Shown in pieces: positions 12,535 through 14,968 of a DNA stretch of 28,621 nucleotides. Every line of letters starts with the position of its first letter. The stretch's first letter is position 1. The notes under the pieces are model-generated. The model was not told where the DNA came from. It was given only the letters and a program-made list of their open reading frames with translations, and did no database searches. The stretch spans positions 1-28,621 of the forward strand of contig CATJWA010000179.1 of assembly GCA_949744025.1 (NCBI GenBank). The letters are read 5' to 3'. The translations under genes were made by a program, and so were the position numbers. This DNA is from an uncultured Eubacteriales bacterium (GTDB lineage Bacteria > Bacillota > Clostridia > Oscillospirales > Oscillospiraceae).

Positions 12535-14968
12535 TGCCTCCTACCTCCTTCGCTTTCACCTCAACAGGTACGGTATCTTCAGCTTCATTGACGGCGCTCT
12601 CCGGCCTTGGCGCGCGTGTATCATCCTTGCCCACGCGGGAGGGCCGCGCCGCGGGCGGCGCGGTTCCTGCCATGCCGGGGCGCCGAACGGAGGCCATATC
12701 CTTGATCGAGGACGGGTTTCGCGTGGCAGCCCTGCGTTCCTGCCGTGCCGGGGCGGCGGTAGAGGTTTCACGCTTTTCTCCGCCGTTTGCGCTCGAAGAA
12801 CGTACCGTACGGGATTCCTGCCGTGCCGAGGGACGGGAGGGCTTGCTTTCTCCGGAGACAACGCCGCTCTGATGGGAAATGCGCGGTTCCTGCCGCGCCG
12901 TACCTGAAGGCTGTGCGGAGGCCGGCGCGGGAGCTCTGTTCCCGACACCTCCAGTGCGCTGGGTTTCCTTTGCCGCCTGTCCGGACTGGGCGCTCTGGGC
13001 AGCGGGTGTGGTTCCTGCCGTGCCGGGCTGGGGGCCTGTACCGCCATGTATAGGCTGTGCAGAGGCTGGACGCTGGGTAAAGCGGCTGTCCGAACTTCCG
13101 GAGGGAGCCCTCGCCCCTGACATGGACGCGGGAGGAGTTTTCCCCGCTCCTCCCGACGGCGCCTGCTTTGCGCCCTCCAAAGTAACGGCGCTCTGCTGCT
13201 CGGATTTGCCGGAATTATGTACCGTCTGGTTCTGTACGGAGCGCGCGGCATTGGTAAAGCGCGTCGCAGCTGGGCTACCGGTTCCTGCGGTGCCGTTGCC
13301 GTAGGCTTGCCCCCCTCCATGAACGGTGTGCTCGGAGGAGGCAGCCATTGTTCCTGCGGAGCCGTGTTGCGGCGTTTTGCCGCTGACAGTACCCGCACAC
13401 CCCTTGGAGCCTGTCGCGGTTCCTGCCATGCTGGGCCTCGGCGTTTTACCGTCAACGAAGGTCCTGCGCGTACCGGAGACATTCCCCGTTCCTGCGGCGC
13501 TGGATTGGCGCGTTCCTCCCTTATCCGAAGCCATACGCACACCGTAGCCTGTGACGCTTCCTGCGGCGCCGTGTCTCGGAGCGCCGCTTTCTCCCGTGTT
13601 TGTCTGAGCGCCGGAGGCAGAAGATGTATTCCTGCCGGAATTTGTCGCGCTGCTTTTCACGTTGTTCATACTTACAGCGCCGCCCTGCTTTACATGGCTG
13701 GGCGAACGTGAGGCGCCAGACGGAACGGAGCTTCTGCGCTCCGGCGTCTTGCCGGACGTGCCGGAGGGCTGCGCCTGTGTGTTGACATTTGGCGCGGGCG
13801 GCGCGCCCTCCATAGCTGCGGCCTCGTTGTCGTCGGGATACACATTGACCGGCTGGCCCGCCGGCGGCCACTTCTGCCCACTGTTCTGTGCTGCGCCGGT
13901 TTGCGAAGTCGAAGTATGCGTATTTGTGCTCTGCTGCGCGGAGCCGCTGCCTTTGCCAGTACCGGATTTTCCTGACGCGCCTTTGCCGTTTCCTGCTGAT
14001 GCTCCGGCTGTGCTGTTGAAATTCGGTTTCCCGCCATTGGCCTTTGCGCCGGAGCCGCTTCCCGAGCTGCTATTGGCGGCGCTGCCCGCGTTGTTACCCG
14101 CGGCTTTGACTACATTGCCCGCCATAGAGCGTACCACCGTATAGGCCAGCATCCCCGGAAGGCCGCGCCCGCCGAGACCGTCTCCCGTCAGCGCGGGATT
14201 GAGCCCTATACGCGTTATGATGGAGTCCACCTTTCGGGCCACCTTTACCACTCCGAACACCAATACGATCCACACCAGAACGTCCAAACCCGTCGGAACA
14301 TTCCCAAGCAGTGACAGCAGCAGCTTGAAAAAGAGCATGTTGCTCAGCATAACAAAGCACATGGACGCGAACATCCTGCACCAACCCGTGAAGATGTCCG
14401 AGGTGTTCTTACTCCCGCCCATGCCGAAGGCCAGCGGCGCGCACACCGTAAGAAACGCCAGCACAAGATACCTCTCCACTATCTCCAGCAGCAGGCGAAA
14501 CACCTTGAACATGAGGATAATGTTTATCACAATAATAAGCAGCCATTCCGCCGTCAGACCGGCGAACGCGCCCACGCCTATAAGCTCTACATCCACCGCG
14601 TCTACGGCGTCCAGCAGCGTTATAATTTCCGCGGTCATGCTAAGACCAATCTCACATATCTGCGGACTGGCAAGCAGCAGGAAAGCAAATATGAAGGTTC
14701 GGGTAAAAAGCTGCTTAGGGTCCTCACCCTCGAAGCCGAGTCCGGTCATCATGCTCTTTGCCGCCTGAAACACCAGATTGCCAATGAGCAGCGCCCAGCC
14801 AACGGCAAGCAGAATATCCATTATTTCAGGAATAACCGGCATGTGTACCTTGAGATATTCAAAATCCACATTCAGAATGTCCGTGAACACGGAGAAGAAA
14901 TATTCCCATACCTCCAGCACCAGTCCGTAGAGCCATTCAATCAGGCCCTGAAATATTAACTCCAGCAA
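12527..14968 (-). CDS. VirB6-like polytopic membrane protein with long Ser/Gly/Ala/Thr-rich C-terminal tail
   Basis: About 270-aa multi-TM N-terminus then ~500 low-complexity residues. Start is probably TTG 14968, because the GTG at 14977 lies within the RBS GAGGAGGTG. Confidence 0.82.
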   Translation of the reverse strand: MLELIFQGLIEWLYGLVLEVWEYFFSVFTDILNVDFEYLKVHMPVIPEIMDILLAVGWALLIGNLVFQAAKSMMTGLGFEGEDPKQLFTRTFIFAFLLLASPQICEIGLSMTAEIITLLDAVDAVDVELIGVGAFAGLTAEWLLIIVINIILMFKVFRLLLEIVERYLVLAFLTVCAPLAFGMGGSKNTSDIFTGWCRMFASMCFVMLSNMLFFKLLLSLLGNVPTGLDVLVWIVLVFGVVKVARKVDSIITRIGLNPALTGDGLGGRGLPGMLAYTVVRSMAGNVVKAAGNNAGSAANSSSGSGSGAKANGGKPNFNSTAGASAGNGKGASGKSGTGKGSGSAQQSTNTHTSTSQTGAAQNSGQKWPPAGQPVNVYPDDNEAAAMEGAPPAPNVNTQAQPSGTSGKTPERRSSVPSGASRSPSHVKQGGAVSMNNVKSSATNSGRNTSSASGAQTNTGESGAPRHGAAGSVTGYGVRMASDKGGTRQSSAAGTGNVSGTRRTFVDGKTPRPSMAGTATGSKGCAGTVSGKTPQHGSAGTMAASSEHTVHGGGQAYGNGTAGTGSPAATRFTNAARSVQNQTVHNSGKSEQQSAVTLEGAKQAPSGGAGKTPPASMSGARAPSGSSDSRFTQRPASAQPIHGGTGPQPGTAGTTPAAQSAQSGQAAKETQRTGGVGNRAPAPASAQPSGTARQEPRISHQSGVVSGESKPSRPSARQESRTVRSSSANGGEKRETSTAAPARQERRAATRNPSSIKDMASVRRPGMAGTAPPAARPSRVGKDDTRAPRPESAVNEAEDTVPVEVKAKEVGGNE
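12663..13642. repeat. Array of 11 copies of a ~15-nt motif (consensus GTTCCTGCSRYGCCG) with unique spacers
   Basis: Copies start at 12663, 12736, 12814, 12886, 13011, 13281, 13350, 13419, 13488, 13557 and 13628 (partial). Confidence 0.85.

Follow-up and report, generated by a model that had tools for sequence, protein, structure and literature searches.

What is it that selection preserves when a short word recurs through the end of a coding sequence, the peptide that the word encodes or instead the nucleic acid itself? The question is raised by a gene located within a 28,621-nucleotide stretch of DNA from an uncultured Eubacteriales bacterium, a stretch which is referred to here, at its full length, as the window. 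The gene (12527..14977, minus strand) encodes a TrbL/VirB6-like protein of 816 aa, consisting of a membrane domain of about 290 aa followed by a disordered C-terminal tail, which is cationic (net charge +29). It is a member of the TrbL/VirB6 family, with membership taken as an N-terminal domain of that family in combination with T4SS synteny. That is, the gene scores a sub-threshold 21.5 bits against PF19597 (27-bit cut-off), the TrbL domain is precomputed on its homologues, and its synteny with VirB4, PrgI/VirB3 and the coupling protein is conserved. The virB6-like identity given to this coding sequence by an earlier, sequence-only reading of the DNA is thereby borne out. With its stop the gene runs 8 nt past the start of the next one, an overlap which is conserved in homologues, and because of that overlap the ORF of the tail must stay open.

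The recurring sequence is 15 nt in length, and I use here simply the term 'word' to describe it. Ten full copies, with 0-1 mismatch to the plus-strand pattern GTTCCTGCSRHGCYG, span 12663-13571 (plus-strand starts, by pattern scan, at 12663, 12736, 12814, 12886, 13011, 13281, 13350, 13419, 13488 and 13557), and these read CCGGCAYNGCAGGAAC on the coding, minus strand. If up to 2 mismatches are allowed, then the pattern has 14 matches in the window versus 1.86 on average, and never more than 6, in shuffles. Translation in the VirB6-like ORF gives xAGT for seven of the full copies and ARQE for three. A partial copy, AATTCCGGCAGGAAT (13628..13642, minus strand), is read as NSGRN and has the GCAGGAA core alone in common with the word. 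In this gene the site falls short of a full copy, close homologues conserving there the peptide NSSRNTS, and true full copies in its frame (RH[GS]RN) are present in distant homologues. The description provided by the sequence-only reading is, in these respects, accurate: its eleven starts and ten spacings (73, 78, 72, 125, 270, 69, 69, 69, 69 and 71) all are correct, as are the frames which it assigned (G[TMSA]AG[TS] seven times; ARQE at 12736, 12814 and 12886; NSGRN at 13628) as well as the stop, TGA at 12770-12768, in the frame giving GTAGT for the ARQE copies. It had also called the spacers dissimilar, and indeed the array is not detected by Tandem Repeats Finder, the spacers being too diverged.

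The word lacks palindromic symmetry, is absent elsewhere in the element, and has a genome count at control (background) level, the latter ruling out a Chi- or KOPS-like genome-wide word. Nor is this a CRISPR array, as the word is 15 nt long (versus CRISPR repeats of at least 23 nt) and lies within a conserved ORF, with Rfam and gene content unsupportive as well. In reads from four mouse-gut runs the array sequence is identical, with zero variants.

The array is carried by conjugative elements roughly 30 kb in size from gut Clostridia (Oscillospiraceae and relatives), a family that is large, uncharacterised, and without a recognised relaxase or known oriT. Searching with the N-terminal domain only results in 1,488 family matches, including 303 at E ≤ 1e-30. 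Candidate carriers in culture are Pseudoflavonifractor sp. HCP28S3_F10, Oscillospiraceae bacterium 50-16 and Bengtsoniella intestinalis BP47G. The plasmid database yielded no close relatives, and the tail DNA as searched against relatives' genomes had zero matches in 40 genomes. A genome-wide scan for the pattern recovers mostly unrelated low-complexity repeats, with the real array present in VirB6-like tails only. There, within the final 1-1.5 kb of virB6/trbL-like genes, the word repeats 6-13 times in one orientation, with 50-80 nt from one copy to the next. Its consensus on the coding strand, CCGGCA-YN-GCAGGAAC, is 15-16 nt long and asymmetric, with two conserved halves found around a 2-nt variable centre.

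Among 26 homologous tails (38 kb) the GCAGGAA core is present 243 times in forward and 1 time in reverse orientation, and by frame there are 143 copies in A, 73 in B and 26 in C, with all three frames, i.e., PGxAGT, AxQE and RH[GS]RN, seen within one ORF. Profiles of the flanks are alike in frames A and B (r = 0.78), and the same two middle positions are variable in every frame, supplying T/M/A/S/I/V in one and R/Q/P/W in another. In-frame copies use GCA GGA without exception (64/64), versus a background elsewhere in the tails of 21% of Ala codons for GCA and 16% of Gly codons for GGA. Orthologous core positions are 0.92-0.99 identical versus 0.62 for the flanks, and synonymous sites otherwise are near saturation (codon identity at identical residues of the N-terminal domain, 0.43-0.67). 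Given a family search that was blind to the tail (n = 132 tails), at least two xAGT peptides are found in 106 of those tails, AxQE in 83, and [GS]RN in 71. As the word is kept whichever frame it is read in, it is a hidden nucleic-acid signal rather than a peptide repeat. From comparison of these sequences, it is strongly supported that the array is a nucleic-acid element under a purifying selection which is blind to reading frame.

The sequence-only reading had suggested as much, with selection on the nucleic acid and the tail as a tolerant host, and had named peptide-only, single-frame conservation among homologues as grounds for abandoning the idea. What homologues conserve instead are nucleotides, and this holds for synonymous sites and for each of the three frames. 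The array may be viewed as an unusually clean natural case of a strongly selected nucleic-acid signal within a coding region, with the disordered VirB6 tail its tolerant carrier. Annotators should take note as well, since what looks like a 'repeat protein' in tails of this kind may have arisen as a by-product of a code carried by DNA or RNA. As coding-embedded cis arrays already are known, what the virB6 word array adds is a new variant.

Conservation at the peptide level would involve an old 23-aa repeat and compensated frameshifts, with PGxAGT, AxQE and RHGRN each selected or simply inherited. The 69-nt (23-codon) period is in keeping with such a history, the peptides are conserved in alignments, a few decayed copies hold the peptide using other codons, and tandem repeats are known as frameshift hotspots (PMC12871928). 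In those frameshifted protein tandem repeats, unit lengths off three, or indels, give rise to several frames per protein, much as here; nothing there suggests nucleotide selection, however, whereas here the word is frozen and the remainder of the unit diverged. Rare synonymous codons, that is, are fixed in every in-frame copy while the neighbouring codon freely changes amino acid, the conservation profile is identical across frames, and the spacers, which are just as old, are down to 62% identity. Whole lineages, moreover, use another frame, e.g., P0144, which reads the array mainly as SHGRN. A protein-level tandem repeat should vary freely at synonymous sites and keep to a single frame, and neither is seen. 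The decayed 23-aa peptide repeat, which was the null explanation of the sequence-only reading, is rejected as sufficient given the 64/64 GCA GGA and the three frames, and a peptide-level account overall is very improbable. An overlapping (dual-coding) gene is ruled out by stops in the alternative frames of homologous tails, about 1-13 in each of frames +1 and +2 and rarely none; an alternative 328-aa ORF in the window is unconserved. ORFs representing VirB6::S1-like fusions look like deletion remnants and not like informative fusions.

If the signal is one of nucleic acid, then what might recognise it? Possibly, though this is put forward tentatively and by analogy, the array serves as a double-stranded DNA binding array for an element protein, which most likely would be p417. 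The latter is a 417-aa ORF (5742..6842, minus strand, with a likely start near 6842) that has a winged-helix N-terminus and a nuclease-like domain, the modelled fold of this domain being PD-(D/E)XK-like. Its structure model (pLDDT 88, pTM 0.89) shows a partial match to those AFDB clusters that bear the name Replication-relaxation (E 9e-4 to 2e-3, TM 0.35-0.39) and matches unnamed AFDB clusters at a TM of up to 0.67; p417 resembles restriction-endonuclease folds as well, with nickase and restriction-endonuclease entries in the PDB matched weakly (E about 0.1). A Pfam search does not detect p417. As modelled, p417 is a candidate MOBC-like ('replication-relaxation') relaxase, a type reported to bind, at oriT, direct repeats which lie at a distance from the nick site. 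Among candidates for binding the array it is the best, and one which was absent from those of the sequence-only reading.

Under this proposal the word would be a double-stranded DNA site for a sequence-specific element protein, with p417 the first choice, and the array would be an oriT-associated platform bound by that relaxase. An inverted repeat adjoining the terminal copy, perfect, GC, and with 9-bp arms (CCGCGCCGC-GG-GCGGCGCGG on the plus strand, 12644..12663), would be a candidate for the region of the nick or of a hairpin. A single copy in the p417 leader would be an operator of the relaxase gene. The ORF itself reads through the array in each copy's frame, and what it yields is a cationic, disordered 'translated spacer'. 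Somewhat more broadly, there is some chance, still short of even, that the virB6 tail is of dual use, i.e., a relaxosome-loading or oriT platform, or instead a protein sponge embedded in mRNA, for a family of MOBC-like relaxases in gut Clostridia that had so far gone unrecognised. The array then would be overprinted by the VirB6 ORF, such that the same 1 kb would be both a cis-acting array and a translated disordered tail, and the leader copy would control the relaxase gene. Whichever applies, the frame-blind array provides a testable handle on the cis biology of these elements, whether transfer origin, relaxase control or mRNA control.

Counted in favour of a relaxase and its oriT is that the window has just 10 perfect inverted repeats with arms of at least 8 bp and that one of these abuts the terminal copy. 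The hairpin which that repeat could form displays weak covariation, one pair only, and a fold z-score of 0.1. Lineage G155, in which the upstream half of the word is altered but the core kept, possesses a diverged p417 (only 29-37% identical), and this too was counted for DNA binding by a relaxase. So was the lack of other relaxases in the element: PF03432 is found on none of the element contigs (there are matches in 5 genomes, on other contigs only), and among the element's unknown ORFs there is no HUH motif. Arguing against a relaxase platform is that 10-13 sites over 1 kb is far above any described relaxase binding site. Spacings lack helical phasing, whether taken as 55-78 bp or over the wider range of 49-87 nt (modes of 55, 64, 69, 73-76 and 78), and this too argues against the proposal. 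Relatives without any array still have homologues of p417, as they do of RepA, ParB and the S1-like protein, and this speaks against p417 as the array's binder, just as its partial fold match and the Pfam silence speak against its being MOBC.

A close likeness is to MOBC TraX and the oriT of pAD1 from Enterococcus, likewise a RepA_N element, with a relaxase of restriction-endonuclease fold and N-terminal winged helix which binds five direct repeats located 70-120 bp from nic, i.e., apart from the nick (PMC12857230). An oriT within coding sequence is precedented as well, since one oriT of pAD1 was first described inside of repA (bioRxiv 10.1101/2024.01.30.577996). TraX differs in having about five short repeats over some 100 bp, versus 10-13 copies of 15 nt over 1 kb, at a spacing of about 70 nt, within virB6, the candidate relaxase gene being 5.7 kb away. 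An inverted repeat reportedly adjoins the pAD1 oriT direct repeats too (Francia & Clewell 2002). Streptomyces clt/TRS repeats, which reportedly are bound by TraB (Vogelmann et al. 2011), also are a cis-acting transfer locus of short repeated words, located toward the 3' end of a transfer gene's coding sequence. Those words, however, are of 8 bp and serve an FtsK-like pump of double-stranded DNA, whereas here the coupling protein is of VirD4 type and there is a T4SS.

A close rival to binding of the word as double-stranded DNA, though itself doubtful, is that the sites function at the RNA level, as single-stranded GGA words (GGCAGGAAC) on the transfer-operon mRNA, with the S1-like protein or a host CsrA-type factor as binder. 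The p417 leader site could then be a regulated target, with the array of 10-13 sites a sponge or assembly platform setting relaxase translation or mRNA stability, a scheme to which we give about a one-in-four standing. Every copy lies within transcribed sequence and on its sense strand, as the forward and reverse counts indicate, although a shared orientation is expected from tandem duplication without need of selection. The lone other GCAGGAAC in the window (6862..6869, minus strand) is in the p417 leader, 27 nt before the likely start, where it adjoins the ribosome-binding site and lies just 3' of a stem-loop of about 25 bp (approximately 6873..6925, minus strand). Variation in this stem among elements consists of G·U wobble on the sense strand, which points to RNA. 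The leader copy is conserved in four canonical-array elements and missing from five variant or array-less ones, a co-occurrence which is confounded by relatedness; scanning metagenomes for the leader block gave mostly chance matches plus one further usable sequence. Spacing without helical phase and a non-palindromic word also suit RNA, as does an S1-like protein (multi-S1/OB-fold) being encoded at the element's end, an identity noted by the sequence-only reading and weakly confirmed here.

The core also resembles CsrB repeats, which are CAGGA(U/A/C)G. CsrB/RsmZ sponges similarly combine many CAGGA-type words per RNA with a single copy beside a ribosome-binding site, but they are non-coding RNAs with GGA in hairpin loops at a spacing of roughly 10-60 nt, whereas the array is inside of a translated ORF and loop covariation is absent. 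A hairpin presenting the motif is in fact ruled out, there being no covariation or pairing signal over 146 instances, with predicted accessibility merely mirroring base identity. An array of CsrA/Rsm-type GGA sites should have GGA in hairpin loops and a CsrA-family partner, and neither was found: the element showed no CsrA gene, and a search of Rfam returned nothing relevant to the array. Fifteen conserved nucleotides, in addition, is long for a single-stranded RNA site, and translating ribosomes would strip bound protein from a coding region.

Two further possibilities are unlikely. One is that the transferred strand carries the words as a single-stranded DNA signal, or that they form a recombination hotspot, being either nick-core-like sites for a relaxase acting in trans or microhomology for gain and loss of units. 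The invariant TCCTGCC matches the MOBP nick core (plus strand TTCCTG|CC versus ATCCTG|Y), with GGTTCCTG|CC agreeing at 5/6 positions with YATCCTG|Y; the inverted repeat is on the correct side, 5'-proximal and sharing the strand, an arrangement also found in RP4 and tfs4 (consensus from PMC3772185). In lineage G155C3 some copies are an exact ATCCTGCC, and host genomes have PF03432 relaxases on other contigs. Yet the 6-7-nt match is post hoc, the element encodes no MOBP relaxase (one in cis is ruled out, with PF03432 found only on other contigs and no HUH motif), and ten pseudo-nick sites right behind the nick would make abortive termination a danger. The nick region of pLS20 is an unrelated one (PMC5313138). 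For a hotspot there is the variation in unit number among homologues, but the units are old and orthologous rather than turning over rapidly, and 13 nucleotides are unlikely to be frozen by a force as weak as evolvability.

The other is that the array is an auxiliary iteron array for RepA_N, controlling copy number via titration or handcuffing, or instead a ParB centromere, and this too is improbable. RepA_N binds direct repeats within its own gene, and the iterons of this element's origin, inside of repA (2345..2465, minus strand; coding strand CAAGAACCGC in 23-nt phase), match GCAGGAACCGCG of the array at 10/12 positions and are conserved in all canonical-array elements. They are, like the array, translated direct repeats acting as DNA sites in different frames, with a partly similar core (CAAGAACC versus CAGGAACC). 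Unlike the array they are contiguous, in strict 23-bp phase, in the initiator's own gene and variable by lineage (CAAGAACCGC, AAGAAGTG or CAAGACCTGC). That similarity is post hoc (roughly p = 0.02), the array's conserved half (CCGGCA..GCAGGAA) differs from that of the iteron (GAACCGC), and co-variation is lacking, with lineage G155C1 keeping the array's GCAGGAAC despite iterons of AAGAAGTG. Array spacings fall outside of the helical phase of about 22-23 bp expected of a RepA_N iteron array. As for ParB, ParA and ParB are present and the window has no canonical parS at up to 3 mismatches, but ParB-type HTH proteins bind palindromes (centromere sites being palindromic, of about 16 bp, and usually near parAB) whereas the word is asymmetric; a palindrome found after parB is unconserved in sister elements. 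The distance from the array to repA is 10 kb, to parB 14 kb, and the array's absence from relatives that retain both proteins counts against either. Of the interpretation offered by the sequence-only reading, selection on nucleotides stands, while its ParB/centromere and RepA candidates are poorly supported.

A further observation concerns the ancestry of the units. Distant relatives display the frame order A-C-B-A at spacings of 55, 64 and 76 nt, each of which is 1 mod 3, and this suggests that the units descend from one of about 65 nt, a length which was not a multiple of three.

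The word GTTCCTGCSRHGCYG is found on the plus strand of the window, with zero or one mismatch, at 12663, 12736, 12814, 12886, 13011, 13281, 13350, 13419, 13488, and 13557, its coding-strand form being CGGCAYNGCAGGAAC. Shuffled windows, scored at the two-mismatch level, yield a mean of 1.9 matches and a maximum of 6. As read by the window's ORF, seven copies give G-x-A-G-T/S and three give A-R-Q-E, with a partial copy at 13628 translated as N-S-G-R-N. The copy spacings claimed in the sequence-only reading are all correct, as is the position it assigned to the TGA closing the alternative frame. 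Its description of the spacers as dissimilar is borne out as well, since Tandem Repeats Finder does not detect the array in the window. The word is limited to the VirB6-like tail in three complete elements, and the host genome outside of the array contains it at control frequency.

That selection acts on the nucleic acid, as the same reading had proposed, is supported by homologues. The DNA of nine of these was compared for codon use and conservation, with all in-frame copies (64/64) employing GCA GGA, this against a background, in the remaining tail, of 21% GCA among Ala codons and 16% GGA among Gly codons, and of 8% and 10%, respectively, in the N-terminal domain. In that domain codon identity to the window is 0.43–0.67 at identical residues, i.e., synonymous sites are near saturation. 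Synonymous conservation is elevated in windows that fall on word copies; the mid-word codon is free to change amino acid (ATG/ACC/ACG/ACA/GCC), with the flanking synonymous positions fixed; and core positions of orthologous copies are 0.92–0.99 identical versus 0.62 for flanks. As PGxAGT and AxQE also keep their places among protein homologues with 34–70% tail identity, the frame change is old.

A pattern scan of species-representative genomes supplied 16 further VirB6-like genes, ones found, that is, through the motif itself, from Oscillospiraceae, Pseudoflavonifractor, Ruminiclostridium, and other Clostridia. In these a single ORF carries the full word, [AC]CGGCA[CT]NGCAGGAA, in each of its three frames, often with the frames interleaved; the loci L038 and L072, for example, display the frame order A A C B A A C B A, read as PGxAGT (A), PRH[GS]RN (C), and [ST]PAxQE (B). 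Across 26 tails (38 kb) the 7-nt core is present 243 times forward and once in reverse, and its flank profile is alike in frames A and B (r = 0.78), running C 86–90%, G 88–92%, G 89–93%, C 83–93%, A 73–82%, C/T, N, and then core. Because those 16 genes came from a motif search, the N-terminal domain alone was also searched against 1.8 billion representative proteins. Among the best 132 hits with tails, 106 have at least two xAGT peptides, 83 have AxQE, and 71 have [GS]RN, with the third frame dominant in some lineages (e.g., protein P0144, with SHGRN).

The tails thus retain the word both at synonymous positions and across frames: it is the nucleotides that are under selection. An explanation based on the peptide alone predicts conservation in a single frame, which is not what homologues display, and is very unlikely. 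The array, by contrast, we hold with high confidence to be real, its frame-independent nucleotide conservation being about as clear as comparative sequence allows. Two simple explanations were rejected: an overlapping gene, as there are stops in alternative frames of homologous tails and the window's 328-aa alternative ORF is not conserved, and rapid turnover or concerted evolution, as the units are ancient and orthologous from one homologue to the next. Rfam gave no match, positions flanking the word have no co-varying pairing partner, and predicted accessibility around the word merely follows base identity.

The VirB6-like ORF (12527–14977, minus strand; 816 aa) consists of a TrbL_4-like polytopic N-terminal domain of ~290 aa plus a long low-complexity tail. 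Such tails contain little T (9–17%) and encode a cationic sequence (net charge +22 to +50) with many A, G, S, T, P, Q, and R residues. At 12527–12534 the ORF's stop and the start of the following 445-aa gene share 8 nt, as they do in most homologous loci, and this conservation suggests translational coupling through the tail. Our reading is that the tail is a nucleotide repeat array read through as a translated spacer; we infer that its frame must stay open, with the peptide sequence of little importance. Distances between copies group around 69 nt for A to A, 55 for A to C, 64 for C to B, 73–76 for B to A, and 72 or 78 for B to B. A-C-B-A being a recurring order, and each of its steps 1 mod 3, an ancestral unit of ~65 nt is implied, one that keeps the frame only when taken three at a time (~195 nt).

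Translated cis-acting arrays are known from RepA_N iterons, the pAD1 oriT in repA, and Streptomyces clt. The literature searched held no description of an array of such size, spacing, and location whose three-frame translation forms a VirB6 tail. In a sister lineage (G155:C3 and G155:C1; L171–L172, L169–L170) a different array, CCCAGGGGNGG-GCAGGA[AC] with a 63-nt period, occupies the same tail position; it is read mostly as PRGGQ[DE] and has in common with the window's word the GCAGGA core alone. Separately, two proteins, P0031 (L164:352–2511) and P0033 (L165:2082–3467, L166), have the VirB6 membrane domain (to ~residue 285) fused directly to an S1-like C-terminal part, via independent junctions at the identical VirB6 position, on contigs without a T4SS core downstream. 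These probably are deletion remnants, with ~10 kb lost between the VirB6 and S1-like genes.

All genes of the window are on the minus strand. Transcription order begins with ParA, ParB, several small ORFs, a sortase, and a transglutaminase-like protein, followed by a 2225-aa thioester/SpaA adhesin and a small membrane protein. After the VirB6-like gene come the 445-aa ORF (no family match), an 89-aa XRE protein, PrgI/VirB3, a TraC/TrsD-like protein, and VirB4, then a 221-aa ORF, a 417-aa ORF (p417), and a VirD4-type coupling protein, and lastly a Phd/ParE pair, RepA_N, DUF5697, and an S1-like protein. The latter (3–1328; homologue L156:3245–4783, minus strand) has an acidic disordered N-terminus and resembles ribosomal protein S1 weakly but repeatedly (NCBIfam E-values as low as 1e-9; a 512-aa full-length homologue scores 21.2 bits against Pfam S1). 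Two sister elements on longer contigs have the same gene order with unrelated genes beyond it, indicating an element of roughly 30 kb. Both encode, just upstream of parA, a 178-aa protein bearing two excisionase-like HTH_17 domains (e.g., L157:9891–10427, minus strand, beyond the window's right end); no integrase was seen, though host genes flank one of these elements, on a 53-kb contig from a cultured isolate. Sequencing runs holding near-identical stretches are mostly labelled mouse-gut metagenomes.

No PF03432 relaxase is present on element contigs, nor was an HUH motif seen in the element's unknown ORFs. The p417 protein (5742–6842, minus strand, likely start near 6842; homologues ~373 aa) has no Pfam match. 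As modelled from a 35-sequence alignment (pLDDT 88, pTM 0.89), it is predicted to have an N-terminal winged helix plus an alpha/beta nuclease-like body. Foldseek relates this model to AlphaFold clusters named 'Replication-relaxation' (E 9e-4 to 2e-3), also to restriction-endonuclease/Mrr folds, and weakly to the PDB entries for nickase N.BspD6I and SdaI. MOBC relaxases combine a winged helix with a nuclease fold exactly as in the model, and p417 is a candidate for the element's missing, MOBC-like relaxase. In pAD1 the N-terminal winged helix of TraX binds five direct repeats, 70–120 bp from the nick site (PMC12857230), and one pAD1 oriT was first described within the repA coding sequence (bioRxiv 10.1101/2024.01.30.577996).

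The sole further GCAGGAAC in the 28.6-kb window, both strands considered, is at 6862–6869, in the p417 leader (~280 nt) and 27 nt before the likely start. This leader block is kept in 4/4 canonical-array elements examined (in one as GCGGGAAC) and, as ACAGGAAC, in one metagenomic relative, and is absent from five variant-array or array-less elements. That single extra copy and this pattern of conservation together tie the word to the p417 gene. The leader has a conserved stem-loop of ~25 bp (~6873–6925, minus strand), after which come GCAGGAAC and a strong ribosome-binding site; in five elements the sense strand of the stem varies almost exclusively by G·U wobble. The leader looks like a structured regulatory 5' UTR.

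Readings of what the array may do are ranked here by probability. Highest, if tentatively so, is an array for DNA binding, its most likely partner being the MOBC-like relaxase candidate, in association with oriT. The word's length (15–16 nt), its two conserved halves flanking a variable centre, and the swap of its upstream half in G155 (CCCAGGGGNGG), with core kept and p417 29–37% identical, all argue for DNA. A perfect inverted repeat, one of only ten in the window with arms of at least 8 bp, directly adjoins the terminal array copy, on the same side as the repeat of MOBP-type origins relative to their ATCCTG nick core (PMC3772185), and the word's plus strand, TTCCTG|CC, is like that core; both likenesses are post hoc (roughly p = 0.02 apiece). 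Close behind is an array of RNA-level sites tied to the p417 leader, with words as sites for an RNA-binding protein, the array as its sponge, and the ribosome-binding-site copy as its target. The leader copy is immediately 3' of the stem, where G·U-only variation points to RNA or sense-strand single-stranded DNA structure, not a duplex protein site. Nick-like single-stranded DNA sites or a recombination hotspot are improbable. Several long-tailed lineages lack the array, yet keep p417, RepA, ParB, and the S1-like gene, which weakens every partner hypothesis; the remaining probability belongs to something not considered.

An array serving RepA_N or ParB is similarly unlikely. RepA_N origin iterons lie inside repA (2345–2465) in a 23-nt phase, are conserved as CAAGAACCGC in sister elements, and match GCAGGAACCGCG at 10/12 positions, but the conserved halves of iteron and word differ. 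Sampling the order without bias shows that iterons differ by lineage, with AAGAAGTG, CAAGACCTGC, and ATCAAGA in more distant ones, all in the 23-nt phase (L140, L136, L143, and L168 were among the loci compared). G155C1, one such lineage, still has GCAGGAAC, which speaks against a link to RepA. The sequence-only suggestion of a centromere-like ParB array fares poorly given an asymmetric word, no canonical parS in the window, and 14 kb between array and parB. Just after parB, a perfect 13-bp palindrome (26818–26847) lacks a conserved counterpart in sister elements; it is more probably a terminator than a parS.
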